Shown here one piece after another: positions 30,039-51,699 of a stretch of 64,000 nt of DNA. The notes under the pieces were generated by a model. The model was given only the letters and a program-made list of their open reading frames with translations, had not been told where the DNA came from and searched no databases. Origin of the DNA: an uncultured Thermoanaerobaculia bacterium (GTDB taxonomy: Bacteria > Acidobacteriota > Thermoanaerobaculia > Thermoanaerobaculales > Sulfomarinibacteraceae); contig CAYTTB010000006.1 in assembly GCA_964440565.1 (NCBI GenBank), positions 3,199 through 67,198 of the forward strand, written 5' to 3'. The first letter of the stretch is position 1; each line of letters opens with the position of its first letter. The position numbers and the translations under genes were made by a program.

Positions 30039-30054
30039 TGGCACGGGCCTTGCG
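30039..30054 (+). promoter_or_regulatory. sigma-54 (-24/-12) promoter for the pentaheme small cytochrome
   Basis: TGGCACGGGCCTTGCG versus consensus TGGCACG-N4-TTGCW, with one mismatch at the last base. It lies 26 nt before ATG 30080, and GGAGG at 30069-30073 serves as the RBS. Confidence 0.7.
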
Positions 30055-30079
30055 TGGCCGTGCACGCCGGAGGCGTAAC

Positions 30080-30784
30080 ATGGGACGGTGGCGATACACC
30101 CTGATCGCGCTGGTGGCGGTCGCGGTGGGGATCGCGTCGGTGGTGCTGGCGGGGTCGGTGGCCGGCACCAAGCACGATCTCTCGACCAACTTCGACCAGT
30201 ACTCCAACCGCGTGTGCGTGTACTGCCACACGCCACACTTCGCCAACACCACGTTGAGCTACCAGGCCCCGCTGTGGAACCGCTACGTGGACGTCTCCAA
30301 GACGTTCACGCCGTACTCGAGCGACACCATGGACACCACCCCGGGCGACGTGCGGACCACGGTCTCCATCCTCTGCCTCGGCTGCCACGACGGCACGCTG
30401 GGGACCGCGGTGGTCAACGGGTACACCGGCAGCGACAAGCACGACCTGGTCAACGCCCCCGGCCCCGGCGGCATCCCCGACACCACCTCCTGGCCCAACT
30501 GCGAGCGGTGCCACCCCGACAAGTACCACGGCGGCCCACCCGTGCAGTGGATCGGGACCGACCTCTCCAACGATCACCCCATCACCATCTCCTACCCGAC
30601 CCCCTCGCAGGACCCCGACTTCACCACTCCCCCCGATCCCGTCAGCGGCTGGAGCGACGTTCCGCTCTATGACGGTCGCATCGAGTGCCCCACCTGCCAC
30701 GAGCCCCACGACGCCACGTACGCCCCGTTCCTGCGGATGGACAACCAGAACAGCGCCCTCTGCACGCGCTGCCACGTCAAGTGA
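30080..30784 (+). CDS. small pentaheme c-type cytochrome (paralog family with 51018..51665 and 55436..56116)
   Basis: 234 aa with an N-terminal signal/TM. Five CXXCH motifs: CVYCH, CLGCH, CERCH, CPTCH, CTRCH. Shared family motifs: GTKHDLS, VCVYCHTPH, PLWN, LCLGCHDGT, GTDLSNDHPI, and the C-terminal NSALCTRCHVK. Confidence 0.85.
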   Translation: MGRWRYTLIALVAVAVGIASVVLAGSVAGTKHDLSTNFDQYSNRVCVYCHTPHFANTTLSYQAPLWNRYVDVSKTFTPYSSDTMDTTPGDVRTTVSILCLGCHDGTLGTAVVNGYTGSDKHDLVNAPGPGGIPDTTSWPNCERCHPDKYHGGPPVQWIGTDLSNDHPITISYPTPSQDPDFTTPPDPVSGWSDVPLYDGRIECPTCHEPHDATYAPFLRMDNQNSALCTRCHVK

Positions 30785-31967
30785 CCGCGGGCGGCTCGGC
30801 CCCCGCCCCGCGGGAGGCCGCGGCCCGGACCGGTACCCGGGAGGACACGAAGTGGGCGGTGCCCCGCCGCTCGAGACAGCGCCGGAGGGCCCCCACCACC
30901 TCGGGATCGAACTGGCTCCCCGCGCACCGCTCGATCTCCTCGAGCGCCGCCTCGGGAGTGCGCCGCCTCCGGTACGGCCGCGGCATGACCATGGCGTCGA
31001 AGGCGTCGCAGACGCCGATGACGCGGCTCTCCAGCGGGATCTCGTTCCCGCGGAGACCGTCGGGATAGCCGCTTCCGTCGAGACGCTCGTGGTGCCCCCG
31101 GATCAGCGGTGCGAGATCGCTCAGCAGCGGAATCTCGCCCACCATCTCGGCCCCGAGGACCGGGTGGCGGCGGACCAGAAGCCACTCGGCGGAGCTCAGC
31201 GATCCCGCCTTGTTGAGGACCCGCTCCGGCACGCCGATCTTGCCGATGTCGTGGAGCGAGGCCGCGACCTCCAGCCGCCGGAGGCTCGCCCACCCGAGGC
31301 CCAGCTCTTCCCCGAGGTGGGCGCTCAGGTGAGCCACCCGCGCCGAGTGGCCCCGGGTCACCGCGTCCTTGGCCTCGAGCGCGGTGGCGAGGCCGCGGAT
31401 GATGCCCAGGAGGTTGCGGGCCTCGGCCTCCCGGTACCGCCTGCACCTGAGCCCCAGCGCCAGGCTCGCCGCCAGCGCCTCGGCGGCCAGCAGGTCGTCC
31501 TCCCCGAGCGCCCGGGGCTCCGGGCTCGCCAGCGTGAGTACGCCGAGGAGCTGCCCCTGGTACTCGATGGGCACGCTCACCGCGCTCAGGCGCTCGTACC
31601 CGAGCGCCGAGACCGGGGTGAACCTCCGGTCGGCCGTGATGTCGTGCACGAGGACCGGGCGCCCGAGCGCGGCCACGTACCCCGAGAGCCCCTCTCCCAG
31701 GACCACCTCGCCCCGGCCCGCACCACCGCCCCCGTCGAGCCCGCGCGCCGCGGCCACGCGGAGCTTGCGGCCGTCGTCGTCCACGACGAGCAGCAGGCCC
31801 ACGGGTACGCCCAGGTGGCGGCACGCGGCCTCCAGCGCCTCGTCGTGCGCCCTCTCGCTGTCTCCCACCAGGCAGTGCCCCGCCTCGGCCACCGAGCGCA
31901 GGCGGGCCACCGCACGCGCCGCCACCTCTTCAGGCCCCCCCACTGGCCGCTGCGGATCGTTACCCAA
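30777..31967 (-). CDS. GAF domain-containing HD-GYP phosphohydrolase (c-di-GMP phosphodiesterase type)
   Basis: N-terminal GAF domain (GEGLSGYVAALGRPVLVHDITADRRF). The HD-GYP domain carries HSARVAHLS, LHDIGKIGVP and HHERLDGSGYPDGL. TTG start at 31967 lies 5 nt after GGAGGG. Its stop overlaps the convergent cytochrome stop by 8 nt. Confidence 0.88.
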   Translation of the reverse strand: MGNDPQRPVGGPEEVAARAVARLRSVAEAGHCLVGDSERAHDEALEAACRHLGVPVGLLLVVDDDGRKLRVAAARGLDGGGGAGRGEVVLGEGLSGYVAALGRPVLVHDITADRRFTPVSALGYERLSAVSVPIEYQGQLLGVLTLASPEPRALGEDDLLAAEALAASLALGLRCRRYREAEARNLLGIIRGLATALEAKDAVTRGHSARVAHLSAHLGEELGLGWASLRRLEVAASLHDIGKIGVPERVLNKAGSLSSAEWLLVRRHPVLGAEMVGEIPLLSDLAPLIRGHHERLDGSGYPDGLRGNEIPLESRVIGVCDAFDAMVMPRPYRRRRTPEAALEEIERCAGSQFDPEVVGALRRCLERRGTAHFVSSRVPVRAAASRGAGAEPPAVT

Positions 31968-32034
31968 GGACGCCCTCCACGATGGGCGAGAATCCGCACG
32001 CCGGGCGCGCGACGCCCACCGTGAGGTTCCTTCA

Positions 32035-32050
32035 AGCAGGCACCGTGCCA
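32035..32050 (-). promoter_or_regulatory. candidate sigma-54 (-24/-12) promoter for the HD-GYP gene
   Basis: The minus strand reads TGGCACGGTGCCTGCT (TGGCACG-N4-CTGCT). It lies 8 nt downstream of the radical SAM stop and about 69 nt upstream of the TTG start at 31967. Confidence 0.5.
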
Positions 32051-32057
32051 GCCCGGG

Positions 32058-33587
32058 TCAGGCGTCCGGGTCGGCGGCGTCCCGCGCATGACCCGGGGCG
32101 TCGCCCAGGACGATACCGGCACGCTCGAGCATCCGCTCCATCGCCGGTGGCATCCCGGCCTCCGCCGCCATCCGCCGCATCTGCTCCCCCAGGTAGCTGT
32201 GCTCGATGAGGAGCTTGAGCACCGCCACCATGAACCGGCGCTTGTGCCCGGGCAGCTCCCCGAGGCGGCGGAACCGATCCCTGAAGAACTCCCCCGTGGC
32301 CCGGTGCAGCTCGCGGTTCATCTCCTCGACGGTCATCGCCCGCGGCTTCACCACCGCCTCCACGAGGTTGTACCTCCGGTAGTCGCGCGTCGCGAGGTAC
32401 GGCTCCAGCTCCGGGTAGATCTCGGCGTACGGCCACGGGGTGATGGCCAGGAAGAACGCCATGTCCGGCCCGTACCACTTGGCGAGCTCCACGGTGGCCC
32501 GGATGCTCTCCGGCGTCTCGTCCGGGGTGCCGAGGACGAAGCTCGTCTCGCTCACCATGCCGTGCGCGTTGATCAGCTCGATGGCGCGACGCGACTCCTC
32601 CACCTTCACGTCCTTCCGGTAGAGGTCGAGCGTGGCCTGGCGGGTGGATTCCACGCCGACGTAGATGTGCGCCACCCCGGCCTCGGCGTACCGCTCCAGG
32701 ATGTCCTCGTCGCGCACGATGTCCACCACACGGGTCTCCAGCAGCAGCTGCACCCCGACCTCGCGCTCGACGAGAAGGTCGAGGATGCGCTCCCACCGCT
32801 CCCGGGAGACCGTGGGCGTCTCGTCCGAGAGCATCGCCACCCGGACGTCGTACCGGTCGCGGAGGTGCTCGAGCTCGGCCACGAACGACTCCGGCGACCG
32901 CGCGCGCCAGCTCCGCTCCCAGAACAGCTGCTGCGAGCAGAAGGAGCACCGCTGGCGGCACCCCCGGGAGGAGCAGACGATGGCCAGCCGCCCGTCGGGG
33001 TACGGGCGGTACCGGTACGGCGTCCAGTCGAGCAGGTCCCACGCCGGGTGCAGGGCATCCAGGTCCGCCACGTACCCCCGCGGCGGGGTGCACACCGGGC
33101 GGCCCTCGTGCCGGAAGGCGATCCCCTCCACCTCCGCCAGGCTGCCGCCGGCGGCGACCGCCCGCACCAGGTCCGCGAGGGTCGGCTCCCCCTCCCCCCG
33201 GACGACGACGTCCACGTCAGGATCCTGCGACAGGATCTCGCGCCAGCAGAAGGTGGGGTGGACGTTGCCCAGCACCGTGAGGATTCCCGGGGCGATCCGC
33301 TTCGCGGTGGCGCACACCTCGCGGGCGTCGGGCTCCATCGCGGTGATCGCCGTGACCCCCACGATGTCCGGACGCCACGTCTCGATCTCGCGCGCGATGT
33401 CCTCGTGCGTGTGGTCGAGCGACATCGCGTCGTAGATCCGCACCTCGGCGCCCGCCTCCCGCGCGGCGCCGGCGAGGTAGACGAAGTGGAGCGGCAGCCA
33501 GGTCCCGGCCGACTCCACGACGCCCGAGTGGTACGGTGGCGTCACCAGCATCACCCGGGGCCGCCTCCGGCGCGTCACGACCTCCAT
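32058..33587 (-). CDS. B12-binding-domain radical SAM protein (BchE-like class B)
   Basis: Real start taken as ATG 33587 (MEVVTRRRRPRVMLVTPPY). N-terminal cobalamin-binding Rossmann region (VRIYDAMSL...DIVGVTAITA). Radical SAM cluster motif CSSRGCRQRCSFC (CX3CX2C). 509 aa. Last gene of the minus-strand cytochrome operon, 8 nt after the preceding stop. Confidence 0.85.
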   Translation of the reverse strand: MEVVTRRRRPRVMLVTPPYHSGVVESAGTWLPLHFVYLAGAAREAGAEVRIYDAMSLDHTHEDIAREIETWRPDIVGVTAITAMEPDAREVCATAKRIAPGILTVLGNVHPTFCWREILSQDPDVDVVVRGEGEPTLADLVRAVAAGGSLAEVEGIAFRHEGRPVCTPPRGYVADLDALHPAWDLLDWTPYRYRPYPDGRLAIVCSSRGCRQRCSFCSQQLFWERSWRARSPESFVAELEHLRDRYDVRVAMLSDETPTVSRERWERILDLLVEREVGVQLLLETRVVDIVRDEDILERYAEAGVAHIYVGVESTRQATLDLYRKDVKVEESRRAIELINAHGMVSETSFVLGTPDETPESIRATVELAKWYGPDMAFFLAITPWPYAEIYPELEPYLATRDYRRYNLVEAVVKPRAMTVEEMNRELHRATGEFFRDRFRRLGELPGHKRRFMVAVLKLLIEHSYLGEQMRRMAAEAGMPPAMERMLERAGIVLGDAPGHARDAADPDA

Positions 33588-33595
33588 ACGCCCCC

Positions 33596-33934
33596 CTATC
33601 CTCCCAGCATCCGCACCGTCCGCCACTGCCACCAGGTGCCGAGTCCGAACACCACGAGGAGCACCACGTGCTTGATCACCAGCAGCCGCCGTCTGGCGCG
33701 CTCCGCGTCGGGCCCGTAGACGTCGGGGACGTAGGTGAACCCGCGCCCGGCGCCGGTGAGCAGGACCACGGCGATGGCCGCGAGCCCCATGTGGAGATGA
33801 GCGCGGGCCAGCTCCGCGACGAGCTCGCCGGGCCCCCGGCGGGCGAGCACCCACACCGCCACCACCGTCGCGGCCCAGAACCCCGCCGCGAGGTCGTGGA
33901 CGAACCCGATCACGATGGAAAGCGCCGTCCGCAT
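33596..33934 (-). CDS. small integral membrane protein (3-4 TM), unknown function
   Basis: 112 aa from ATG 33934 within track ORF 33596..34873. Hydrophobic helices include ALSIVIGFVHDLAAGFWAATVVAVWVL and VIKHVVLLVVFGLGTWWQW. It starts 9 nt after the ccsA stop. Confidence 0.5.
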   Translation of the reverse strand: MRTALSIVIGFVHDLAAGFWAATVVAVWVLARRGPGELVAELARAHLHMGLAAIAVVLLTGAGRGFTYVPDVYGPDAERARRRLLVIKHVVLLVVFGLGTWWQWRTVRMLGG

Positions 33935-33942
33935 CCCAACCC

Positions 33943-34764
33943 TCACTGGAAGTACGCGGAGTGCAGGGTCGGCATCAGGAACGGCAGCACCAGGAGCGTG
34001 AGCACCACCAGCGCGAAGGCGCCGACGGCCGACCAGGCGGTGGCCCTCGGGCCCATCCGGAAGAAGCGCCGGGCGTGCAGCAGCGAACCGTAGGCCAGCC
34101 AGGTCACCAGAGACCACGTCTCGATGGGGTCCCACCCCCAGTACCGCCCCCACGCCTGGTTCGCCCAGATGGCGCCCGCCGCGATGTTCACGGTCCAGAA
34201 CACCATCCCGAATCCGACGGCGCGGACCAGCGTCGCGTCCAGCACCTCCACCGGCGGCACGCGGTCCGCGAACCGGCCCCACGCCCGGCCGCCGCGGAGC
34301 ACGAGCACCGCCAGTCCCACGGAGACCAGGAAAGCCGCCGCCGAGAGCTTCGCGAAGGTGACGTGGAACACCAGCCAGATCGAACGCAGGGTCGGCGGCA
34401 CCTCGCGGATCGCGGGGTCCGCGAACTGCGCCAGCGCCACCATCAGGATCGCCGCCGGCAGGACGACCACGGCGACGGGCAGCCATCGCGGCCGGAAGCG
34501 GACGAAGAGGAGCAGGGCCGCCACCATCACCCAGGCGTCCGACGACAGCACCTCGAACCGCATCATGTACGGCCCATGGCCGGCGGCGATCCAGCGGCCG
34601 ATCAACGCCGCCCCGTGGACGGCGAGACCCCCGGCCGCCGCCCACAGCCCGGCCCGCGCCCACCTCTCGCGCCCGAACAGGGTACCCGCGGTGACTCCCA
34701 CCGCGGCGAGGATGTAGACACCCACCGCCGCCCACTGGAGCCCGATCTGCCAGGCCGCGCTCAC
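33943..34764 (-). CDS. ccsA: cytochrome c biogenesis protein CcsA (System II heme-handling subunit)
   Basis: Trp-rich heme-binding motif WANQAWGRYWGWDPIETWSL with flanking conserved His residues (FHV, LLHARR). GTG 34764 forms a GTGA overlap with the upstream lipoprotein stop. The rest of track ORF 33943..35220 is shadow. Confidence 0.85.
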   Translation of the reverse strand: MSAAWQIGLQWAAVGVYILAAVGVTAGTLFGRERWARAGLWAAAGGLAVHGAALIGRWIAAGHGPYMMRFEVLSSDAWVMVAALLLFVRFRPRWLPVAVVVLPAAILMVALAQFADPAIREVPPTLRSIWLVFHVTFAKLSAAAFLVSVGLAVLVLRGGRAWGRFADRVPPVEVLDATLVRAVGFGMVFWTVNIAAGAIWANQAWGRYWGWDPIETWSLVTWLAYGSLLHARRFFRMGPRATAWSAVGAFALVVLTLLVLPFLMPTLHSAYFQ

Positions 34765-35267
34765 CGCCCGCTCCCGTGCGGTGCTCGGCCCCCACCCTCC
34801 CATCCGGGGAGACGGCGGCCCACCCTGGGCGGCTCCCGGAACCAGGTACGCGCCACGATCCACTCCCCCCCACGGCGCTCGAGGCGGTACGCCACGCGAT
34901 ACTCGTCCTCGGACTCCGGACCCGTGGGCCGGCCGCTCCCCAGCTCCCGCTCGCGGTACCGCCACCGCTCGTGCGTCACCGCGGTCACGGAGCCGTCCTC
35001 CTCCCGGCGGAACCCTTCCAGCTCGAGCTCGACGAGCTCCGCATCCAGCACCCGGCCCATGTCGAGCCGGACACCGATCAGACCGGTGATCTTCTTCGCC
35101 TCCTCCGGGCCGGCCACCGACTCGACCAGTGCGGGGTCCGCGGTGCGGTACGCCTCGACCACAGTGCGATTGTAATTCAGAATCGCCTTCTCCACGGTCG
35201 AGGCCGCGGGCCGCCCGCACCCTGCCACCGCGCCCGCCAGCGCCACCGCCGCCGCGAGCCTACGCAT
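34761..35267 (-). CDS. lipoprotein of unknown function inserted between ccsB and ccsA
   Basis: 168 aa. Signal plus lipobox MRRLAAAVALAGAVAGC. The soluble domain reads AILNYNRTVVEAYRTADPALV...EWIVARTWF. Both ends are translationally coupled. Confidence 0.6.
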   Translation of the reverse strand: MRRLAAAVALAGAVAGCGRPAASTVEKAILNYNRTVVEAYRTADPALVESVAGPEEAKKITGLIGVRLDMGRVLDAELVELELEGFRREEDGSVTAVTHERWRYRERELGSGRPTGPESEDEYRVAYRLERRGGEWIVARTWFREPPRVGRRLPGWEGGGRAPHGSGR

Positions 35268-36498
35268 CCGTGCACGCCCTCTCCCGCGCGGCGATCCGCT
35301 CGAGCAACGTCGCGCCGAGCGGGACGAACCGGCGCGGCCACACGGCCACCGTCACCCGCTCGACGTCCCCCTGGGGCTCCACCACCACCGCGACGTCGGC
35401 CGGTACCACCGCGAACAGCAACGTCACCCCCAGCACCACCAGCCCCATGCCGAGCCACGCCAGCACCAGGAACGGATCCTGGCCGCCCAGCAGCCGCACC
35501 CAGGGACGCACCCCCCTGTGGGTGACGCGTCCGAGTCCGGGAACGAACGCCGACTCCCCGGGCGCGAGCGACCCCACCCACACCGCCACCCCATCGCGGA
35601 GGAGGCGCAGGGCCGCCACCCCCGAGGGCGCCACCCGGACGCGCAGCTCCGATCCTCCGCCCAGCCGGGCCCGTCCGCTCGCCGCGGCGCCGGGGCGGTG
35701 CTCCGCCAGCACCGCGAGCCGGCGGCTGCCCACCTCGAGCAGGGCGGCGACCCCGTGCCGCTGGTCCAGCCACACGGTTCGCGAGCCCAGGTGCAGCGGC
35801 CGGTTGATGGCGAGGCGGCGCTGCCGGCCGGCCACGGAGACCACCGCCTCCAGCGCCCTGAGACGTCCACCCTCGCCGTACTCGGCGTGAACGCGCCGCA
35901 GCGTGAGGGGCCGCCGGAGTGCGAACGACCGGCCCAGCGCTCCCGGCCATTGCGCCGCCCACGCCGAGGAGACGGGGCGCAGCGTCTCGCCCTCCAGGAG
36001 GTCCACCACCCCGCCCGCCCCCAGGAGCGCACGCAGCATCCCCGCGATCGCCACCAGCAGGAGCCCGAGGTGCAGGAGCGGGGAGCCCGCCAGACCCAGG
36101 CGGCCGTGCCGCCTCACCCACGTCCTTCCCCCACCCGCCGGCCGCGTGAAGACCGTCCTGTGTGGCGCGGCGAGCAGCCGCCCGGGGGTGGGCCGGCGGC
36201 GCCACTCGCGTGGCAGGCGCCCGAGCAGGTCCCACGTCACCACCGCCAGCGAGGCGGTGCACGCCGTGACCACCGCCACGAACGGCCACGATGCGAACAC
36301 GTGGTCGAGGCCCAGCGCCGCGGCCCATCCGGGCGTGGGAGGCCCCGCGGCGCCGCGCTGCGGGATCGCCGCCCCCACCACCGCCAGGACGGCGAGCGCG
36401 CCGAGCTCCGAGGCGATCACCGCGCGGCGGCGCAGCACCCTCCCCGGACGGAGTCGCCGGGGGAAGGCCGCGGCGGCGCGCGCGGCGGTGACCGCCAT
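35260..36498 (-). CDS. ccsB: cytochrome c biogenesis protein CcsB/ResB-like
   Basis: ATG 36498 overlaps the giant cytochrome stop (TGATG). N-terminal TM with the VVGAAIPQ motif, a second TM (FASWPFVAVVTACTASLAVV), a large periplasmic domain and a C-terminal TM. This is the typical ResB architecture. Confidence 0.7.
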   Translation of the reverse strand: MAVTAARAAAAFPRRLRPGRVLRRRAVIASELGALAVLAVVGAAIPQRGAAGPPTPGWAAALGLDHVFASWPFVAVVTACTASLAVVTWDLLGRLPREWRRRPTPGRLLAAPHRTVFTRPAGGGRTWVRRHGRLGLAGSPLLHLGLLLVAIAGMLRALLGAGGVVDLLEGETLRPVSSAWAAQWPGALGRSFALRRPLTLRRVHAEYGEGGRLRALEAVVSVAGRQRRLAINRPLHLGSRTVWLDQRHGVAALLEVGSRRLAVLAEHRPGAAASGRARLGGGSELRVRVAPSGVAALRLLRDGVAVWVGSLAPGESAFVPGLGRVTHRGVRPWVRLLGGQDPFLVLAWLGMGLVVLGVTLLFAVVPADVAVVVEPQGDVERVTVAVWPRRFVPLGATLLERIAARERACTDA

Positions 36499-40994: not shown

Positions 40995-42013
40995 GGGCCG
41001 TCCTCCGTCTGCGTGTTGCCGTCCGCGTAGTGGACCCCGTGGCAGCTCAGGCACTGCACCCGGCCCGCGGCATCGAGGAGGTAGTCGTCACTCGCGATGC
41101 CGTCGCCCCCCGCCCCCTGGACGGAGCCGTCGCCGTCGAGCGGCGCCGTGCGATCCCACCCGTGGCCGTTGCTGCCCAGCGCCACCCCCACCGGGTGGCT
41201 CTTCACCGACCCGTCGTAGGTCTCCACCGCCGTGTGATCCATGGCCCACGCGCGGTGGCAGTCGCGGCAGAACCGGCTCCCCGCGGTGTTGTCCCCGGTG
41301 TCCAGCGGCACCCTCAGGAACGGGTAGGATGCCGTGAACCGCCACCGCTCGCCCACCGCGTAGGTGCCGGAGCCGAAGGTGATCGTGACCCCGCTGTCGA
41401 GCGCGATCGGGGTGCCGATGGTGATGCTCCTGTCGGGGAACCAGGTGGCGCCCTCGTCCTTGGAGTACTTGAAGCTCGAGTCCGCCACCGTGATCTCGAT
41501 CAGGTACGAGACACCGGACGCCCCGGTGTACGATCCACCCGCGGTCACGGTGCCGGTGCTTCCCAGGGAGGTCAGCCTGGCGACGGCACTGATCCTCGCG
41601 CGGCCTCCGTTCGCCGCCGAGGCCGCGTGCTGGTTGTGGCAGGTGGAGCACACGATGGAGCCCCCGTACACCCGCAGCGCCATCTCCTGGTTGGCCGGGA
41701 GCTGGGTGCCGACCGTCGGGTTGACCGCCGCCACCCCGTAGGCGTGGGAGATCCCGCTCTGCCCCAGCACGGCCATGTCGCCCGAGTTGATGGGCAGCGC
41801 GGAGGCGGTCCCCGTGGGGTTGTGGCACGACTGGCAGAGGTTCACGTTGCCGGCCACCGACGTGAGCGTCACCCCGGGGGCCGAGTGTCCCGTGTGGCAC
41901 GAGTCGCAGTCCATCCCCGCGCCCCAGTGGGGCGGATCCACGGCGGCCGCCGGTACCGAGACCGCGAGCGCCACGATCCCGACCCACACGCCTCGCCGTG
42001 CATGCGCCATCAT
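40991..42013 (-). CDS. pentaheme c-type cytochrome with a central non-heme beta domain
   Basis: 340 aa from ATG 42013 (MMAHARRGVWVGIVALAVSVPAAA signal). CXXCH motifs: CDSCH, CQSCH, CSTCH, CRDCH, CLSCH. A ~110-aa heme-free insert lies between hemes 3 and 4. The upstream part of track ORF 40991..42268 is junk. Confidence 0.85.
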   Translation of the reverse strand: MMAHARRGVWVGIVALAVSVPAAAVDPPHWGAGMDCDSCHTGHSAPGVTLTSVAGNVNLCQSCHNPTGTASALPINSGDMAVLGQSGISHAYGVAAVNPTVGTQLPANQEMALRVYGGSIVCSTCHNQHAASAANGGRARISAVARLTSLGSTGTVTAGGSYTGASGVSYLIEITVADSSFKYSKDEGATWFPDRSITIGTPIALDSGVTITFGSGTYAVGERWRFTASYPFLRVPLDTGDNTAGSRFCRDCHRAWAMDHTAVETYDGSVKSHPVGVALGSNGHGWDRTAPLDGDGSVQGAGGDGIASDDYLLDAAGRVQCLSCHGVHYADGNTQTEDGP

Positions 42014-42015
42014 GG

Positions 42016-44619
42016 TCACACCCCCCGTCTCGAGAGCACCGCCACGCCCGCGGCGGCGATCAGCAGCACGAGCAGCGCCCTCCCCGCCGGGCCCTGGACG
42101 GGTATGCCCGTGGCGGTGACGCCCGTCCCCTCGACGTACGCCACGTCCGGGCTCGACGGGGCGTCGCTTCTCACCTCGAGCACGGCGGTCCTGGTCCCCT
42201 CGGCGGTGGGCGCGAAGACGATCCTGAGCTCGCACGACCCACCCGGATCGAGCGTCCGGCCCGTGCACCCGTCCGCCGCCACGTCGAAGTCAGCGGGCTC
42301 GCGGCCGGAGAACGTGACCGCGCCGAGGTTCACCGCCGCTCCACCCACGTTCGAGACCGTCAGCACCCGCTCGAGCGACCTCCCGCCCACGGGCACGGCC
42401 CCGAAGACCACGACGCTCGCCGACAGGTCCAGGGAGGGACCCGCGATCACGCCCCGTCCGGCGAGAGCCACGGACACCGAGCCGGCCGGGGCGGCGAGGG
42501 CGATGCGGAGCGACCCCGCCCAACGGCCCGTCCCCTCCGGCCGGAAGCTCACGGACACCGAGCACACGCCGCCCGCCGGCACCGTACCGCCGCAGGTGGA
42601 GCCCACCACCCGGAACGGGGCCGCTGTCGCGACCTCCGACACCGCGAGCGGCCCCGCGCCGACGTTCCGGAGGTTCACCACCAGCGGAGCGCTCTCCACG
42701 CCCACCTCCTGGGGCCCGAAGTCCAGCGCCTCGGGCAGGGCCAGCGGCTGCCCGGCCCCCACCGCGGCGCCGTACCCCTCGAGCGCCACCGTCTGGGGCG
42801 TTCCCGGGGCGTCGGTGCGGAACGCCAGGGTCCCCTCCCGGGCGCCCGGCACCGCCGGCACGAACGTCACCGCGACCGTGCAGCTCTCGCCGGGGGCGAG
42901 CTCCCACGGGCAGGTGCCCGACACACGGAAGTCGCCCGTGGCCTCGACCCCGAAGAGGGCGAGCGGCGCCGACCCGGCGTTGGTGAGCGTGACCTCGCGC
43001 GGCCCGCCCACGGCCCCCACCGCGACGCTGCCGAAGGCGACCGCCGTCGGGTTCACGGCAGCGGCGGGAGCCGCGAGCTGGGTGTCCGAGAGGCGGAACA
43101 CCTCGAGCCGCCCGGTGTTCGCCGAGGCCACCACCAGCCGGCCCACGTCCTCCGCCACGGCAGCGTCGGTGGGCGTCTTCAGCTCGCCCAGCTCGTCACC
43201 GTACGTGCCCAGGATGTCGCGGAGCTGCCCGTCGAGGGTGAAGCTCTGCACCCGGTCCTGGAATGCATCCGCAGCGAACACCAGCCCGCCCGCGCTCGCC
43301 ACCGCTCCCTCGAGCTGGCCGAACTCGCCGGGCCCGCCCCCGAGGCCGCCGAACGACCCCAGGTACGTCCCGGTGCCGTCGTACCGGCGCACCACGCCGG
43401 CCACCGTGTCGGCCACGGCGAAACCACCTCCCGGAAGACCCTCGACGTCACGGGCCCCGAGGAGCTCGCCCGGCCCGCTTCCGTAGCCGCCGAAGCCGAA
43501 CAGCGCCTTCCCGGCCTCGTCGAACACCACGACCCGCCCACGGTCCCCGTAGAGCACCGCGTACCGGCGGCCCGTCCGGTCCACCGCCACGGCCAGCGGC
43601 GACACCGACCCGTCGCCCGGGTCCAGGTCACGCACCGGCCGCCCGAGCCGGTTCACCACCCTCGCCCCCGACGGGGTCGCCAGCACCAGGTTGCCGTCCC
43701 AGTCCACCTCGAGGTCGTGGACCGGCCCGAGCGGGAGAAAGGTCACGACCTCGCCCGAGGCGAGCCCCACCACCGCCACCCCCTCGAGCCCGTCGTCGGC
43801 GACGTACACCAGGCCGCCGGGCCCCGCCGCCACCCGGTGGGGCGCCACCAGCCCCGCGCTGATGAACTTCTCGGGCACGGCGTCGGTCACCGCCACGCCG
43901 ACCGTGGCGGTCGCGATCCCTCCGTTGCCGTCATCGGCGGTGCAGGTGACGGTCACGATCCCAGGGGTGGCCGGGGCCGAGAGCTCCGCGGTGAACGACC
44001 CGGTGGGGGTGATCGTCCCCGCATCGGCCGTCCACGTGAGCGTGACCGGGTCGCCGTCCGGGTCCGACACGGTCGCCGTGATCACGCTTGTCCCGCCGGG
44101 CAGCACCGCCTGCGGATCCGCCACCAGCGCGTCGAACACCGGGGGCTGGTTGCCGCCGGTGGTCACCTGGATCTGGAGGGTGGCGGTGGCGGTCTGCCGC
44201 CCGCCGCAGAGGAAGGTGCCGCTGTCGGCGATGTCCACCGTGATGGTGTAGCTCCCCTCGACGGCCGGCGCCTGCCAGGTGGCGGTGGTGGTGTACGGAG
44301 AGGCGGAGACACCGGGGTCGATGGCGGTGAACGTTCCGCCCGAGGCCGACCACGATGTGAGGTCGGCCCGGATGTACAGTCCACATCCGCTCGTACACGT
44401 GCCGGTGCAGTCGGGGTCGTGGGCGTCCAGCACCAGCGACACCGTGCCACCGGGAGCCACGGACGGCGGGCTCGCGGTGAACGCGTCCACCACCGGCGCC
44501 GCCGCGCGCGCCACCCCCGGGGCGGCGAGCAGCGGGGCCACGATCCCGGCGGCCAGGACGGCGCGCGGGATTCTCCCCAACTCGACCGGCGGAATGCGAA
44601 AAATTCCGCGCTTCGCCAT
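42016..44619 (-). CDS. exported multidomain surface protein: Ig/PKD-like domains + NHL-type propeller + three ASH/choice-of-anchor-D-like beta-sandwich repeats + C-terminal hydrophobic anchor
   Basis: 867 aa from ATG 44619; the 5' 503 codons of track ORF 42016..46128 are antisense to the kinase gene. Signal peptide present. Ig-like modules (TATVSDPDGDPVTLTWTA). NHL-like blades (GSGPGELLGARDV, GGGPGEFGQLEGAV, DRVQSFTLDG). Three repeats of the type FG.V.VG......L.N.G...L........F......C.....PG.SC...V.F.P. The tail reads IPVQGPAGRALLVLLIAAAGVAVLSRRGV. Confidence 0.8.
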   Translation of the reverse strand: MAKRGIFRIPPVELGRIPRAVLAAGIVAPLLAAPGVARAAAPVVDAFTASPPSVAPGGTVSLVLDAHDPDCTGTCTSGCGLYIRADLTSWSASGGTFTAIDPGVSASPYTTTATWQAPAVEGSYTITVDIADSGTFLCGGRQTATATLQIQVTTGGNQPPVFDALVADPQAVLPGGTSVITATVSDPDGDPVTLTWTADAGTITPTGSFTAELSAPATPGIVTVTCTADDGNGGIATATVGVAVTDAVPEKFISAGLVAPHRVAAGPGGLVYVADDGLEGVAVVGLASGEVVTFLPLGPVHDLEVDWDGNLVLATPSGARVVNRLGRPVRDLDPGDGSVSPLAVAVDRTGRRYAVLYGDRGRVVVFDEAGKALFGFGGYGSGPGELLGARDVEGLPGGGFAVADTVAGVVRRYDGTGTYLGSFGGLGGGPGEFGQLEGAVASAGGLVFAADAFQDRVQSFTLDGQLRDILGTYGDELGELKTPTDAAVAEDVGRLVVASANTGRLEVFRLSDTQLAAPAAAVNPTAVAFGSVAVGAVGGPREVTLTNAGSAPLALFGVEATGDFRVSGTCPWELAPGESCTVAVTFVPAVPGAREGTLAFRTDAPGTPQTVALEGYGAAVGAGQPLALPEALDFGPQEVGVESAPLVVNLRNVGAGPLAVSEVATAAPFRVVGSTCGGTVPAGGVCSVSVSFRPEGTGRWAGSLRIALAAPAGSVSVALAGRGVIAGPSLDLSASVVVFGAVPVGGRSLERVLTVSNVGGAAVNLGAVTFSGREPADFDVAADGCTGRTLDPGGSCELRIVFAPTAEGTRTAVLEVRSDAPSSPDVAYVEGTGVTATGIPVQGPAGRALLVLLIAAAGVAVLSRRGV

Positions 44620-44645
44620 CGGCAGGCCTCCCCCCTCCCGGTCCG

Positions 44646-44661
44646 TGCAACCAGGATGCCA
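44646..44661 (-). promoter_or_regulatory. sigma-54 (-24/-12) promoter of the 12.6-kb minus-strand cytochrome operon
   Basis: The minus strand reads TGGCATCCTGGTTGCA (TGGCAT-N5-TTGCA). It is followed by CGGACCGGGAGGGGGGAGGCCTGCCG and ATG 44619, so the promoter, RBS and start codon are all in register. Confidence 0.75.
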
Positions 44662-44721
44662 GAGCGCGCGCCCCGGCGCCACCCCTCCGCAGCGGGCGTA
44701 CAATCGTCCTCCGGAGGGGGC

Positions 44722-46191
44722 GTGGAGAGAAGCCAACCCAGCACCGGCCGCGCATGGCGGCTTCCGTGGCCGCCGCGGACCGTGTTCGTCGTGATCCCCC
44801 TCCACCTGGTGGCGTTCCTGTTGCTCTACCTCGGCGTGGTCCAGCTCGCGCTGAACCAGGTGACGGTGGCCCACGAGCAGGACATCAAGGTGATGATCCG
44901 GACGGTGGTCGAGGAGCTCCACCCCGCCATGGTGTGCGGCGACGCAGAGAAGGTCCGTGAGCGGCTCGCCCAGTACGTCGCGGCGCACCGGCTGCTGGCT
45001 CTGGAGCTGTACGACCGCCGGGGGCGCCCCCTGGGGCCCACGGCGCGGCAGGACCCCGAGGTGCGGGCGTTCCTCATGGCTCCGGAGCACGAGTCGTACC
45101 GGGTGATCCGCGCCGCGGGCTCGTCGGTGCAGCTCGCCCTGATGCGGATCACGGCGGAGGAGCGGTGCGCGCCCTGCCACACCCCCGGCGAGCCGCTCGG
45201 GGTGGCCTCCGTCGCCCGCGACCTGCGACACGAGCTCGCCGAGACGAAGCGCCGCCTCCGGGTGCACGCGGGGCTCCTCACCGGCGGCTGGATCCTCCTC
45301 GTGGGTCTCCTGAACCTCGTGCTGTCGCGGGCCGCCCGGCGGACCGTGCGGTCGCTCGCCGCCGGCGGCGAGGATGCCAGGCCCTCGCTGGCCATGGACC
45401 CCGTGGCCCTGGAACTCTACCGCTCGCTGCGCGCTACGCTCCGGGCCCGGCGCGAGGAGCGGCGGCGGATGGACGACCACCTCCAGCGCACCGACCGTCT
45501 CGCCACCGTCGGCACCATCGCCGCCGGGATCGCGCACGAGATCAAGAACCCGCTGGCCGGCGTCCAGGGGGCGCTCGAGCTGCTCGTGGAGGAGTGCCAG
45601 GACCACGACCGGCGCGACCTGTTCGAGCGAATGCTGGAGGAGATCCGGCGGGTACAGCGGACCGTGCAGTCGTTGCTCGCCTTCGCGCGGCCCCGGCCCG
45701 TCCAGCCCCGCGTGGCGGACCTCGGCGCCCTGCTGGCCGACGTCGCCGCCCTGCTCGAGCCCGCCTGCCGGCGGCAGGGGATCGAGCTCCGGACCCGCGT
45801 CGCGGCGGGCACCGGAAGCTTCGTGCTGGATCCCGAGCAGATCCGGCAGGTGCTGGTCAACCTGGTCACCAACGCGATGGAGGCCACCGGCCGCGGTGGC
45901 ACCGTCGAGCTGTCGGCGGCGCCGCTCCCGGAAGGTGACGGGGTCGTGCTGGCGGTGCAGGACGACGGCCCGGGAGTCGCCCCGGAGGTGGCCGGACGGC
46001 TGTTCGAGCCGTTCGTGACGACGAAGCTGCACGGCACGGGGCTCGGTCTCGCCGTGGCGCAGCGGATCGTGGAGGAGCACGGGGGCGAGATTCAGGTGGA
46101 GAGCACGCCGGGCCGGACCATCTTCCACATCGTCCTGCCGGCCCGGAGGGGAGGGGAAACGGATGCCGCTGATCCTGATCGTCGAGGATGA
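44722..46191 (+). CDS. sensor histidine kinase (NtrB-like) with a CXXCH heme-c motif in the extracytoplasmic sensor domain
   Basis: In the frame of ORF 41998..46191. TM1 is VFVVIPLHLVAFLLLYLGVV. The ~130-aa loop contains ERCAPCH (45166..45180). TM2 is LLTGGWILLVGLLNLVL. H-box GIAHEIKNPL, N-box VLVNLVTNAME, G-boxes DDGPGV and GTGLGL. Start is uncertain (GTG 44722 after GGAGGGGG; alternatives ATG 44656 and GTG 44782). Confidence 0.85.
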   Translation: MERSQPSTGRAWRLPWPPRTVFVVIPLHLVAFLLLYLGVVQLALNQVTVAHEQDIKVMIRTVVEELHPAMVCGDAEKVRERLAQYVAAHRLLALELYDRRGRPLGPTARQDPEVRAFLMAPEHESYRVIRAAGSSVQLALMRITAEERCAPCHTPGEPLGVASVARDLRHELAETKRRLRVHAGLLTGGWILLVGLLNLVLSRAARRTVRSLAAGGEDARPSLAMDPVALELYRSLRATLRARREERRRMDDHLQRTDRLATVGTIAAGIAHEIKNPLAGVQGALELLVEECQDHDRRDLFERMLEEIRRVQRTVQSLLAFARPRPVQPRVADLGALLADVAALLEPACRRQGIELRTRVAAGTGSFVLDPEQIRQVLVNLVTNAMEATGRGGTVELSAAPLPEGDGVVLAVQDDGPGVAPEVAGRLFEPFVTTKLHGTGLGLAVAQRIVEEHGGEIQVESTPGRTIFHIVLPARRGGETDAADPDRRG

Positions 46192-47524
46192 GGACCTGCT
46201 GCGCTGGTCGCTCCAGCGGCGGCTCGAGAAGGCGGGGCACGAGGTCCACCTCGCGGCGGACCTCGCCGAGGCCGAACGCCACCTGGAGCAGCACCAGCCC
46301 GACCTCCTCCTCCTCGACCTCGCCCTCCCCGACGGTCACGGGCTCGACTTCTTCGAGCGCAACCGGGAGAAGCTGGCGCCCACCGTGGTGATCGTCATGA
46401 CCGCCGTCGGCGAGGTCGAGGACGCGGTCCGGGCGATGAAGCTGGGCGCGCTCGACTTCCTCACCAAGCCCGTGGACCACGACGACCTTCTCGACCTCGT
46501 GCACCGGTCGCTCGAGCGCCGCCAGGAGCAGCTCGACGCGGAGGCGGCGCGGCGCGACCGGCAGCTCCTGATCAGCTCCGACATCGTGGCCCACTCCGAG
46601 GCGTTCCGGCGCACGCTGGCCATCGCGTGCGAGGTGGCCCGGTCGGAGATCGCCACGGTGCTGATCACCGGGGAGAGCGGGACCGGGAAGAACGTCGTGG
46701 CGAGGTACATGCACGCGGTGTCCTCGCGGGCCGAGCGTCCGCTCCTCGAGGTCAACTGTGCGACGCTGCCCGACCAGCTCGTGGAGAGCGAGCTGTTCGG
46801 TCACGAGCGCGGCGCGTTCACCGACGCCAAGACGCTCAAGCGGGGCACCCTGGAGCTCGCCGACGGCGGGACCGTGGTCCTCGACGAGATCGGGGAGCTG
46901 CGGCTGGACGTGCAGGCCAAGCTGCTCCAGTTCCTCGAGAACCGGAGGTTCCGCCGGGTCGGGGGCGTGCGCGAGATCCAGGTGGACACGCGGGTGTTCG
47001 CCCTCACCAACCGCGACCTCACGGCGATGGTGGCCTCGGGCGAGTTCCGCAAGGATCTCTACTACCGGCTCTCGGTCTTCCCCATCGTGGTTCCGCCCCT
47101 TCGCGACCGGCGCGAGGACATCCTCCCGCTCGCGCGTCATTTCCTCCACACCCTCCAGCCGAAGGTGGGACGGCGCTTCGACGGCTTCAGCCGCGAGGCG
47201 GAGAACCGCCTCCTCGCCCACGACTGGCCGGGCAACGTCCGGGAGCTCCGCAACGTCGTGGAGCGGGCCGTGATCCTCGCGCAGGGCCCCACGGTGGGCC
47301 CCGAGTCGCTGGTGCTCGACGTCCGGATGGCGGGCTCCGCGGTGGACGAGTCGTCCGCGGTCCGCGGGATCATCCCCCTGGCCGAGGCGGAGCGCCAGCT
47401 GGTGGAGCGCGCGATGGAGGCCGCCGGAGGCAACCAGACGCGGGCCGCGGAGCTGCTCGGCATCACGCGCGACCAGCTCCGCTACCGGCTCCAGAAGCTC
47501 GGGCTGCTTCCCCGCCGCAAGTGA
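46163..47524 (+). CDS. sigma-54-dependent response regulator (NtrC family bacterial enhancer-binding protein)
   Basis: REC domain (LIVEDE...DLLLLDLALPDG). AAA+ domain with GESGTGKNVVARYMH, the sigma-54 contact loop ESELFGHERGAFTDA and VRELRNVVERA. C-terminal Fis-type HTH RAAELLGITRDQLRYRLQKLG. Confidence 0.92.
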   Translation: MPLILIVEDEDLLRWSLQRRLEKAGHEVHLAADLAEAERHLEQHQPDLLLLDLALPDGHGLDFFERNREKLAPTVVIVMTAVGEVEDAVRAMKLGALDFLTKPVDHDDLLDLVHRSLERRQEQLDAEAARRDRQLLISSDIVAHSEAFRRTLAIACEVARSEIATVLITGESGTGKNVVARYMHAVSSRAERPLLEVNCATLPDQLVESELFGHERGAFTDAKTLKRGTLELADGGTVVLDEIGELRLDVQAKLLQFLENRRFRRVGGVREIQVDTRVFALTNRDLTAMVASGEFRKDLYYRLSVFPIVVPPLRDRREDILPLARHFLHTLQPKVGRRFDGFSREAENRLLAHDWPGNVRELRNVVERAVILAQGPTVGPESLVLDVRMAGSAVDESSAVRGIIPLAEAERQLVERAMEAAGGNQTRAAELLGITRDQLRYRLQKLGLLPRRK

Positions 47525-47526
47525 TC

Positions 47527-47542
47527 CGGCACGCAACTTGCA
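47527..47542 (+). promoter_or_regulatory. sigma-54 (-24/-12) promoter of the pseudo-receiver / 21-heme cytochrome / NHL operon
   Basis: CGGCACGCAACTTGCA matches TGGCACG-N4-TTGCA at every position but the first. It lies 3 nt after the regulator stop and 22 nt before GTG 47564, which has GAAGGAG as its RBS. Confidence 0.65.
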
Positions 47543-47563
47543 GGTCGGCGAGCCCGAAGGAGC

Positions 47564-47983
47564 GTGACGCGGATGCGGCTGATGCTGATGGAGGCGTCGC
47601 CAGTCACCGGCTGGCTGATCCGCCGGCTTCTCCCGCCGGACGTGGAGCTGGTGCAGGTCTCGGATCCCGAGGAGGCCGAGAGGGTGCTGCGCGAGGAGCC
47701 CCTCGACGGCGCCGTCTTCGGGCTCACCACGGCGAGCCTCCCGTGGTCGCGGCTGCGCGACCTGTGCGAGCGCCGGGTCCCCCGGATCCCGCACATGTGG
47801 TATTACTCCCTGTGCGAGGTCCCGGGCGACGGCGAGCTCTCGCCGGAGGCCGCGCCCGAGCTTCCTCCGGTTCTCCTCGAGGAGCTCGAGGAGCGGCTCG
47901 CACGGTTCCTTGCCCGGATCGGGGCGGGCCGCACGGAGCGTCCGGTGCGCGCCAACCCCGGGGAACGGAGGGTACGAGAGTGA
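47564..47983 (+). CDS. small cytoplasmic protein, possibly a degenerate receiver (pseudo-REC) domain
   Basis: 139 aa with very high GC3 throughout. Its RBS sits directly after a sigma-54 promoter. The RLMLMEASPV...VELVQVSDPEEAERVLREEPLDGAVFGL pattern resembles REC beta1-alpha1-beta2-alpha2-beta3, but with Gly where the phospho-acceptor Asp is expected (by-eye alignment). Confidence 0.5.
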   Translation: MTRMRLMLMEASPVTGWLIRRLLPPDVELVQVSDPEEAERVLREEPLDGAVFGLTTASLPWSRLRDLCERRVPRIPHMWYYSLCEVPGDGELSPEAAPELPPVLLEELEERLARFLARIGAGRTERPVRANPGERRVRE

Positions 47984-49689: not shown

Positions 49690-49705
49690 GACCGCGGAGG
49701 GACCG

Positions 49706-50746
49706 ATGCGACATCTGACCTGGCGTGTCCTCGCCGCAGCCCTCACGCTCTGGCTCGCCGGCTGCGCCTCCACCGGCCGGCGCCCCGTCCAGGACCCGTA
49801 CGCCGAGTACGTCTGGCCGCCGCCCCCCGACCCGCCCCGGATCCGCCTCGAGACGATCCTCACGGGCCGCGCCGACGTCGAGGCCGAGTCGGGATGGCGG
49901 AAGGCGCTGATCGGGGCCGGCCCGAAGAACCCGTACGACCGGCTCCGCAAGCCGTTCGGCGTGGCGTTCGACGGTCAGGGCCGGATCCTCGTCACCGACA
50001 CCGCGCTCCACGCGCTGGTGCGGTTCGACCGGGAGGGCCACCGCTACGACGTGTTCGGCACCCGCGGGCCCGCCCGGCTCCGCCTGCCGCTGGGTCTCGA
50101 CGTGGCCCCCGACGGGACCGTCTTCGTGGCCGACGCCGGGCGTGCCCAGGTGGTGGCCTACACCGCCGAGGGGAAGCTCGTCGCCCTCTACGGACAGCCC
50201 GGAGAGCTCGTGAACCCCACCGACGTGGCGGTGTCGCCCGACGGCACCCGCCTGTACGTCGCGGATTCCAAGGCGCACCGGATCGTCGTCTACGGCCGCG
50301 CCGACGGGCACCGGGAGGGGGCCTTCGGACGCCGCGGCGAGGGCCCGGGCGAGTTCGCCTTTCCCACCTCGCTCGCCTTCACCCCCGACGGCGACCTCCT
50401 GGTGGTGGACCAGCTCAACTCCAGGGTGCAGCTGCTCACCGACGAGGGCGAGTACCTCGACGAGTTCGGCGGGCTCGGGACCGGCTTCGGGAACTTCGTG
50501 CGCCCCAAGGACGTGGCCGTGGACCGGGAGGGGATCATCTACGTCACCGACGCGGCCTTCAACAACGTCCAGCTGTTCGACTCGGACTTCGAGCTGCTCA
50601 CCTTCGTCGGCGAGGGCGGCGCCGGGCCGGGGCAGTTCCGCATCGCCGCCGGCGTCGCGGCCCACGGCGACCGGTTCGCGGTGGTGGACCAGCTCAACCG
50701 GCGGGTGCAGGTCTTCCGCTACCTCCAGCCCCGCGGTGGGGAATAA
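49706..50746 (+). CDS. NHL-repeat beta-propeller lipoprotein
   Basis: Lipobox LTLWLAGC. Six NHL-like blades, for example FGVAFDGQGRILVTDTALHALVRFD, PLGLDVAPDGTVFVADAGRAQVVAY, PTDVAVSPDGTRLYVADSKAHRIVVY, GPGEFAFPTSLAFTPDGDLLVVDQLNSRVQLL, PKDVAVDREGIIYVTDAAFNNVQLF. Confidence 0.85.
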   Translation: MRHLTWRVLAAALTLWLAGCASTGRRPVQDPYAEYVWPPPPDPPRIRLETILTGRADVEAESGWRKALIGAGPKNPYDRLRKPFGVAFDGQGRILVTDTALHALVRFDREGHRYDVFGTRGPARLRLPLGLDVAPDGTVFVADAGRAQVVAYTAEGKLVALYGQPGELVNPTDVAVSPDGTRLYVADSKAHRIVVYGRADGHREGAFGRRGEGPGEFAFPTSLAFTPDGDLLVVDQLNSRVQLLTDEGEYLDEFGGLGTGFGNFVRPKDVAVDREGIIYVTDAAFNNVQLFDSDFELLTFVGEGGAGPGQFRIAAGVAAHGDRFAVVDQLNRRVQVFRYLQPRGGE

Positions 50747-50768
50747 TACGCACTCCGCCGCGGCCCCT

Positions 50769-50797
50769 GCGCGATTTCGCGCGCGCCCGAAGCGCGC
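50769..50797 (+). terminator. two adjacent GC-rich hairpins downstream of the NHL gene (candidate terminator or protein-binding palindrome)
   Basis: GCGCGA-TT-TCGCGC (50769-50782), then GCGCGC-CCGAA-GCGCGC (50781-50797). They start 23 nt after the stop at 50746 and lie about 150-175 nt upstream of the sigma-54 promoter at 50944. No U-tract follows. Confidence 0.3.
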
Positions 50798-50943
50798 GGT
50801 GTGCGCCCACCGCAGGGCGGCGCGCGTGCGCCGGCCGCGGGAGCGCCCGCGGCGCCCCGAGAGCGCGGCCTCCCGGGCGGTTCGACGGCGTGCAGGACGC
50901 CGCCGCGACGGGATCCGCGGCGGTCACCGCCCGCCCGCCCGCG

Positions 50944-50959
50944 TGGCACGCGCCTTGCA
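50944..50959 (+). promoter_or_regulatory. sigma-54 (-24/-12) promoter of the tetraheme cytochrome / PPIase / barrel / NHL / cytochrome operon
   Basis: TGGCACGCGCCTTGCA is a perfect match to TGGCACG-N4-TTGCA. It lies 59 nt before ATG 51018, with GGGAGGG as the RBS. Confidence 0.8.
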
Positions 50960-51665: not shown

Positions 51666-51699
51666 CCGTGGCCCGGGTCCACCGGGTTCTGCTACTGTC

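Follow-up and report, generated by a model that had tools for sequence, protein, structure and literature searches.

How is an island of multihaem cytochrome genes switched on in an uncultured Thermoanaerobaculia bacterium? The question is raised by a stretch of 64,000 nucleotides (nt) of contig CAYTTB010000006.1, the whole of which is called the window below. A reading of its letters alone (the original prediction) had noticed five sites resembling sigma-54 (-24/-12) promoters, here numbered P1 to P5, in front of the island's units, together with a sigma-54 activator and a partner kinase in its middle, and had proposed that the entire island is one regulon switched by this two-component system. 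The answer that we favour, with a probability of roughly 0.7, is that five functional sigma-54 promoters head a conserved electron-transfer island of about 27 kb under a local two-component mechanism. The parts of this answer differ in strength: the five sites are very probably sigma-54 promoters, as predicted in silico, the local activator probably drives P3 and P4, and it is about an even bet that it drives all five.

The window has a G+C content of 74% (G = C = 0.372, A = T = 0.128), close to the frequencies that had been guessed (G and C about 0.36, A and T about 0.14). Because of this high G+C content, raw lists of open reading frames are useless. The gene map was derived from third-position G+C, counts of the motif CXXCH, Pfam, NCBIfam and the genes called independently on copies of the contig in public data (JGI 3300023442 and runs SRR9849954/55). 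In this map, intergenic DNA makes up 4162 of the 64000 bases (6.5%), and the island spans about 27 kb with five transcription units, each headed by one predicted promoter, as had been described.

The hallmark of a sigma-54 promoter is a pair of dinucleotides, GG and GC, 10 bases apart within YTGGCACG-N4-TTGCW. All five 16-mers were recovered exactly at the positions and on the strands given for them. P1 (TGGCACGGGCCTTGCG, 30039..30054, plus strand, 15.8 bits) lies 25 nt before the ATG of a gene for a pentahaem cytochrome. P2 (TGGCACGGTGCCTGCT, 32035..32050, minus strand, 16.2 bits) begins 7 nt past the stop codon of the upstream radical-SAM gene and is followed 67 nt on by the TTG start of an HD-GYP gene. 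P3 (TGGCATCCTGGTTGCA, 44646..44661, minus strand, 17.8 bits) is 26 nt from the ATG of the first gene of a 12.56-kb operon. P4 (CGGCACGCAACTTGCA, 47527..47542, plus strand, 14.6 bits) starts 3 nt past the stop codon of the activator gene and 21-30 nt before the start of a gene for a receiver-like protein, and P5 (TGGCACGCGCCTTGCA, 50944..50959, plus strand, 20.2 bits) is an exact consensus with the ATG of a tetrahaem gene 58 nt on. The further claims about these sites hold as well: the GG-N10-GC spacing is present in five of five, with zero or one mismatch to TGGCAC-N5-TTGCW; all five occupy short intergenic positions facing the next gene, with 21-67 nt between the 16-mer and the start codon; and a ribosome-binding site of GGAG type precedes all five unit starts.

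Matches of this quality are rare in the window. On both strands there are 5 matches to TGGCAC-N5-TTGCW with at most one mismatch, where dinucleotide-preserving shuffles give 0.84 on average; in 100 such shuffles a count of 5 was never reached. The exact form TGGCAC-N5-TTGCA, which had been judged by eye to be expected far less than once, is expected about 0.012 times per window when calculated from the real base frequencies. In a matrix scan of all positions on both strands (128 kb of strand), no other position scores as high as the five sites (14.6-20.2 bits), and the chance that five random matches would all be intergenic is about 1e-6. The sixth-best score, 13.9 bits, falls within the coding sequence of the kinase at 44810.

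We then used related loci, which carry L-numbers here with the position after a colon. A protein search with the activator yielded over 100 orthologues (63-73% identity), among them several from metagenome-assembled genomes that NCBI names as Thermoanaerobaculia, Thermoanaerobaculales or Acidobacteria. The named relatives are 66-68% identical in the activator and about 60% in the HD-GYP protein; as judged from these proteins, the closest named relatives of the island's host are Thermoanaerobaculia/Acidobacteriota metagenome-assembled genomes. The comparison set consists of 11 loci from metagenome-assembled genomes (L001 and L164-L173, activator 66-73% identical), seven of which (L164-L170) were reached via the activator and three (L171-L173) via the HD-GYP protein. 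Scanning a genome collection with the activator gave mostly paralogues, the best among the matches listed being 66% identical (L001), and scanning a metagenome collection gave none above 53% among the matches listed. L001 is the one true orthologous locus among the matches listed in these collection scans. Its identity with the window is 40% for the kinase, 66% for the activator, 41% for the Ig-like protein and 49% for the giant protein, and the genes of the P3 operon are 41-49% identical to their L001 counterparts. Read from sequence, L001 also carries two small toxin-antitoxin-like gene pairs, both apparently insertions: one separates the kinase from the divergent operon (L001:7580-8010), and the other stands just past the activator, at the place where P4 would be expected (L001:11480-11720).

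The island is repeated nearly gene for gene in L164, L167, L169 and L170. L165, L166 and L168 lack the large island and retain the genes of kinase, activator and small receiver-like protein alone, except that L165 and L166 also carry a divergent gene for a cytochrome of about 980 amino acids (aa).

With the same sigma-54 matrix as for the window, equivalents of the five sites were found in front of the same genes. P1 has one in four of four loci (L167:171, L171:11947, L172:11974 and L173:11957, 14.7-17.6 bits), P2 in three of four (L172:9920, 15.9 bits; L173:9902, 10.8 bits; L167:2223, 10.7 bits) and P5 in four of four (L164:14833, L167:15063, L169:11953 and L170:8165, 18.7-19.6 bits). P3 equivalents occur in ten of ten loci as nine distinct sites (L164, L171, L167, L170, L173, L169, L165, L166 and L001), the P3-type site being identical in L164 and L171. 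P4 equivalents occur in seven of eight (L164 to L170): six lie 5-40 nt past the activator stop codon, and the one in L166 follows at a distance of about 460 nt. The ten loci L164-L173 together measure 187 kb and have 21 matrix matches of at least 13 bits, of which 20 stand at equivalent gene heads; the remaining one, of 14.1 bits, overlaps the start codon of the L167 activator. Across the 31 sites compiled, the GG-N10-GC frame stays the same and the bases at spacer positions 8-11 differ freely, and the sequence flanking the equivalent sites in the ten further loci has diverged. The P1 sites at L167:171, L172:11974 and L173:11957 read TGGCACGGTTCTTGTA or end in TTGAT, with their position before the pentahaem gene retained.

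The candidate regulator of these sites lies in the middle of the island, where the original prediction had placed an NtrC-type activator and a partner kinase; Pfam domains and our own reading of the sequence agree with this. The activator, a bacterial enhancer-binding protein (bEBP) of 453 aa (46163..47524, plus strand), consists of a receiver, an AAA+ Sigma54_activat domain and HTH_8 (Pfam E-values: Response_reg 2e-27, Sigma54_activat 2.1e-62, AAA_lid_14 3.7e-25, HTH_8 6.2e-15). The acidic pocket and phospho-acceptor aspartate of its receiver are intact, as are Walker A (GESGTGK) and Walker B (VLDEIGE). It is indeed the sole bEBP encoded in the window, and its sigma-54-contacting loop is GAFTDA rather than GAFTGA. 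GAFTDA is a common natural variant, accounting for 33 of 171 loops in related loci, and may be functional here; in the sigma-54 regulome of Desulfovibrio vulgaris, GAFTDA is among the loop variants taken to retain function (PMC4641369).

The sensor histidine kinase (44722..46191, plus strand, 489 aa, GTG start) has two membrane helices, HisKA and HATPase_c. Its periplasmic domain of about 140 residues (about 44-185; window 44851-45276) contains one CAPCH motif at residue 149. This domain scores 29.7 bits against Pfam PF21563 (curated cut-off 27) and matches PDB 3B47/3B42 over about 100 residues (phmmer E = 3.4e-5 for 3B47), with CXXCH in register. 3B47 and 3B42 are the c-haem PAS-like sensor domains of GSU0582 and GSU0935, two chemoreceptors of Geobacter sulfurreducens. 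All nine orthologous kinases examined have one CXXCH. Homology thus shows the sensor to be a member of the c-haem PAS-like periplasmic family, with haem attachment predicted. In its catalytic core the kinase comes closest to ZraS (9jfj, E = 1.6e-39), which is itself the partner kinase of a sigma-54 activator. A second, more distant family of kinases adjoining sigma-54 activators was also seen, in L010, L018, L023, L027, L033, L048, L077, L090, L091, L098 and L108. These have one CXXCH about 198 residues before the H-box, compared with about 125-135 here; several adjoin multihaem cytochrome genes, and in L048 a 19-bit sigma-54 site follows directly after the activator.

The kinase and activator themselves may be read from a different type of promoter. 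A candidate -10 element, GTACAATCGTCC (TACAAT; 44698..44709, plus strand), stands 13 nt before the kinase GTG start; the intergenic region of 102 nt that it occupies also contains P3, facing the other way. Its distance to the kinase start is 13-28 nt in L167, L170, L173 and the window itself, and L164 and L169 have the element too. It may be the sigma-70-type -10 box of the kinase-activator operon. A consensus scan for sigma-70-type promoters in the promoter regions gave none.

The third regulatory gene is the first of the P4 unit (47573..47983, plus strand). It encodes a protein of 136 aa, or 139 aa if translation starts at the GTG at 47564. The protein has no Pfam or NCBIfam match, and it aligns over its full length with the receiver domain of the activator, with the phospho-acceptor aspartate replaced by G, N or S in eight of eight loci. 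On this alignment it is a conserved pseudo-receiver devoid of the phospho-acceptor aspartate; that it feeds back on the two-component system is a guess. Its gene always comes after the activator and a P4-type site (L164:11419-11811, L165:11436-11843, L166:11861-12250, L167:11405-11791, L168:7235-7642, L169:8248-8703 and L170:4687-5067).

The trio of kinase, activator and pseudo-receiver persists in L165, L166 and L168, and P3 and P4 flank the pair even in these minimal loci. This is good circumstantial evidence that the activator serves both promoters. P1, P2 and P5 are tied to it by conserved neighbourhood only: where both ends of a locus are visible, their units are found only in islands that also hold the kinase-activator pair. 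The proposal of a single regulon under one two-component system therefore stands in part. P3 and P4 always flank the pair, but no shared upstream activator sequence (UAS) was found.

A UAS typically lies 80-200 nt upstream of a sigma-54 promoter, and one common to the five promoters had been suggested as a check. None emerged from dyads, k-mers, pairwise BLAST or a 30-sequence comparative set. Among inverted repeats, exact or with one mismatch, no dyad was common to three or more of the five upstream regions, and in pairwise BLAST of these regions the -24/-12 elements alone stood out. Several candidates were considered and rejected. The shared word TTCCGCTACCT varies in position and orientation between copies, two of which are inside coding sequence. 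The top word of the 30-sequence set, AATCGTCC, is accounted for by the GIVPL codons of the activator gene and by GGACGATTGTAC, a conserved sequence beside the kinase start. A possible enhancer for P5 was considered in the inverted repeats that lie 20-45 nt past the stop codon of the NHL gene, but these differ in sequence among orthologues. TCCGCGG, with 6 copies against 0.63 expected, is borderline after correction for 851 tests and was not accepted as evidence of an enhancer.

Some of these elements have features of their own. Four of the TCCGCGG copies cluster at 47336-47451, within the final 190 nt of the activator gene, in the part encoding the linker before the helix-turn-helix, upstream of P4; one pair of copies flanks a perfect inverted repeat, GGACGA-G-TCGTCC. 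The cluster may be coincidental, or it may act as an enhancer from within the coding sequence. The repeats downstream of the NHL gene (window 50765-50800; L164:14640-14665) are G+C-rich with no T-run, and folding z-scores of the hairpins are modest (-2.1, -1.9, -0.07 and -1.85). On this weak evidence they resemble terminator-like stems more than binding sites and may separate the P4 and P5 units.

Further points weigh, like the missing common UAS, against the favoured reading. The data cover one contig of the source organism, and the intact sigma-54 activator on it is the sole, indirect sign that the genome has rpoN; a look through the literature for rpoN in Acidobacteria brought nothing usable. 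The frequencies of the sigma-54 matrix are approximate, after the Barrios 1999 compilation. Since orthologous sites were picked with this matrix, their fixed GG and GC are partly circular, and only the recurrence of sites before the same genes counts as independent evidence. Not every site recurs: P2 is missing in L171, whose HD-GYP gene directly follows the giant cytochrome gene, and P4 is missing in L001, where there is an apparent toxin-antitoxin insertion. Some of the P3 and P2 equivalents score only 10.7-11.4 bits, with CGGAAC or CGGCAT at -24, and the three P1 sites of L167, L172 and L173 have TTGTA or TTGAT, not TTGC, at -12, so that the usually invariant C of the -12 GC is missing. Finally, at up to two mismatches the pattern is not enriched in the window (16 matches, 14.6 expected from shuffles), and the near-consensus class alone thus carries the signal.

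This last count also speaks for the idea that the five sites are chance matches, or some other repeated or regulatory element resembling TGGCAC-N5-TTGC, in a genome of 74% G+C; the 13.9-bit match inside the kinase gene and the 14.1-bit match at the L167 activator start can be added to it. We regard this idea as highly improbable in view of the excess at one mismatch, which no shuffle reproduced, the intergenic position and orientation of all five top-scoring sites, the recurrence of equivalents before orthologous genes in ten further loci despite diverged flanks, and the sigma-54 activator encoded alongside. In addition, an Rfam scan of the window found no family. A different question is whether real sigma-54 promoters are under split control, the local activator serving P3 and P4 and other activators, encoded elsewhere, serving P1, P2 and/or P5, in which case separate parts of the island would answer to different signals. 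Such a division would agree with the failure to find a motif common to all five upstream regions, with the minimal loci, where P3 and P4 alone stay with the kinase-activator pair, and with the conserved flavours of P1 and P2 (at -12, P2 sites invariably read C/T-CTGCT and P1 sites often TTGTA). Related lineages are also rich in bEBPs (1785 homologues at E <= 1e-100). Yet the pentahaem/HD-GYP pair or the tetrahaem/PPIase (peptidyl-prolyl isomerase) operon always shares its island with the kinase-activator pair, the 64-kb window has one bEBP, and failing to see a binding site in five sequences rich in G+C says little against a common activator. On balance we consider split control unlikely, though a serious minority possibility.

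The promoters may also be real and the input other than haem-based redox sensing. The CXXCH domain of the kinase might bind a small ligand or another cytochrome, or be vestigial, and the cue might be, for example, cyclic diguanylate (c-di-GMP) acting via GAF/HD-GYP. The 3B47 match is modest and the Pfam score just over its cut-off, the HD-GYP gene has its own predicted sigma-54 promoter in the island, and the receiver of the activator gives a faint match to the VpsR domain. We find this alternative rather doubtful, given that the CXXCH conserved in all nine orthologues is aligned with the haem-binding CXXCH of the solved Geobacter domains and that the island has its own cytochrome c maturation genes.

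Under the favoured reading, that of five sigma-54 promoters with local two-component control, the circuit would work as follows. Transcription of the kinase-activator operon probably starts at a sigma-70-type promoter of its own. The kinase would sense a periplasmic signal, presumably redox state or a haem ligand, via a covalent c-type haem and would phosphorylate the receiver of the activator, a transfer suggested by the domain architecture of the two proteins. The AAA+ domain of the activator would then open sigma-54 closed complexes at P3, in front of the divergent operon, and at P4 at least, and most likely act at P1, P2 and P5 too. The predicted output is, on one side, extracellular or periplasmic cytochromes, the ResB/CcsA System II maturation pair and a likely outer-membrane conduit and, on the other, the HD-GYP c-di-GMP phosphodiesterase and the pseudo-receiver, possibly feeding back on the two-component system.

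The genes under the five sites had been labelled correctly overall, as judged by Pfam, with two corrections. The first gene after P4 is that of the receiver-like protein of 136-139 aa, not the 21-haem cytochrome. The operon behind P3 is a 12.56-kb minus-strand operon that includes the giant cytochrome, as stated, but it begins with a haem-free Ig-like/NHL protein of 867 aa. P1 heads the gene of a pentahaem c-type cytochrome (30080..30784, plus strand, 234 aa, 5 CXXCH; Pfam Paired_CXXCH_1 and Cytochrome_C7) and P2 that of a GAF and HD-GYP (HD_5) protein (30777..31967, minus strand), predicted from Pfam to be a c-di-GMP phosphodiesterase. These two genes, each with its own predicted promoter, converge, their 3' ends sharing 8 nt (30777-30784), an arrangement retained in L167, L171, L172 and L173.

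By Pfam and CXXCH counts, the P3 operon (32058..44619, minus strand) has eight genes. After the Ig-like/NHL protein (42016-44619), which has no haem motif, come a 5-haem cytochrome (40991-41989), a 13-haem cytochrome of 1498 aa (36498-40994), ResB (35260-36438), a 161-aa protein with no assigned family (34761-35246), CcsA (33943-34764), a CopD-like membrane protein (33596-33946) and, as the last gene, a B12-binding radical SAM enzyme (32058-33587); ResB and CcsA belong to System II maturation. The block from ResB to the radical SAM enzyme (32058-36438) is missing in L164/L171 and in L167, where the HD-GYP gene stands directly after the cytochromes. The P4 unit continues after the pseudo-receiver with the 21-haem cytochrome (47992-49689, plus strand) and an NHL beta-propeller protein (49706-50746, plus strand).

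The P5 operon (51018..57204, plus strand; Pfam, CXXCH counts) has six genes in an order that is the same in L164, L167, L169 and L170: a tetrahaem cytochrome (51018-51665), a SurA-like PPIase (51739-52716), a secreted protein of 589 aa (52718-54487), an NHL protein (54499-55443), a second tetrahaem cytochrome (55436-56116) and a 7-haem MtrC-like cytochrome (56089-57204). The 589-aa protein is kept at the same operon position (589-592 aa) in these four loci. It has no Pfam or NCBIfam match and two word-based homologues only, and its AlphaFold model is unusable (mean pLDDT 31.5). At the level of a guess, its sequence pattern suggests an outer-membrane beta-barrel porin. Past the last cytochrome gene of the island lies the sole terminator-like site (57293-57309), which is no more than shuffles give in the consensus scan.

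How does this arrangement compare with known systems? In Geobacter sulfurreducens, BccR (GSU0598) is an activator with receiver, AAA+ and HTH domains, divergent from the sigma-54-dependent cbcBA operon and required for its induction at low redox potential; the study of Joshi, Chan and Bond names no kinase (bioRxiv 10.1101/2021.04.15.440034). The island shares with this system a sigma-54 activator divergent from a cytochrome operon with a -24/-12 promoter, and the cbcBA operon likewise includes a response-regulator-like gene and hypothetical proteins. In contrast to cbcBA, which encodes one inner-membrane bc-type complex, the island has five promoters over about 27 kb, large extracellular-type cytochromes, maturation genes and a likely conduit. 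In addition, a kinase with a periplasmic c-haem sensor adjoins the activator of the island, and the lineage is Acidobacteriota-like. The target cytochromes also differ, and we treat the island as an analogue of the BccR system, not as a member of its type. The promoter consensus of Geobacter RpoN is TTGGCACGGTTTTTGCT, and its regulon includes cytochromes of extracellular electron transfer (PMC2725144); many of the sites described here match this consensus closely. In the predicted sigma-54 regulome of D. vulgaris, the activator DVU3142 is divergent from the octahaem ohcBAC operon (PMC4641369). This again resembles the island in having a sigma-54 activator divergent from a multihaem cytochrome operon and in being a prediction of comparative genomics, but it involves a single operon, another sensor arrangement and another phylum.

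The island resembles NtrB/NtrC and ZraS/ZraR in the domain architecture of the activator, the canonical spacing of -24 GG and -12 GC and the ZraS-like core of the kinase. It differs from the NtrC/ZraR types in its c-haem PAS-like periplasmic sensor, its GAFTDA loop and the lack of a recognisable NtrC- or ZraR-like palindromic enhancer. With respect to GSU0582 and GSU0935, the sensor domain is here fused to a histidine kinase paired with a sigma-54 activator, not to a chemoreceptor signalling domain. Multihaem and porin-cytochrome clusters, presumed to serve extracellular electron transfer, are by now widely reported from uncultured Acidobacteriota; a preprint describing an example from peat makes no mention of sigma factors, kinases or response regulators (10.64898/2026.05.27.727921). 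The principle of control has already been established for Geobacter and predicted for Desulfovibrio; what is gained is therefore breadth and a candidate sensor, not a new mechanism. The additions are a different phylum, the scale (about 27 kb with five promoters), a c-haem sensor kinase next to the activator and the conserved pseudo-receiver.

The analysis provides a concrete, testable circuit for a cytochrome cluster: five predicted promoters, an adjacent activator and a kinase with a predicted haem sensor. Sigma-54 promoters are silent without their activator, and the whole island is therefore predicted to be off until the signal is present. Such an off state matters for the reading of metatranscriptomes and for the expression of these systems. 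The module of kinase, activator and pseudo-receiver with its two flanking promoters is conserved and compact, and it could be moved to a tractable host to find the signal. It is a tentative idea, possible rather than probable, that the haem-kinase, activator and pseudo-receiver together form a redox-sensing module that would read, via the haem of the kinase, the redox state of the periplasmic or extracellular cytochrome pool and act as the master switch of complete extracellular electron-transfer islands across Thermoanaerobaculia-like Acidobacteriota. If true, this would name a sensor for the potential-dependent switching of cytochromes.

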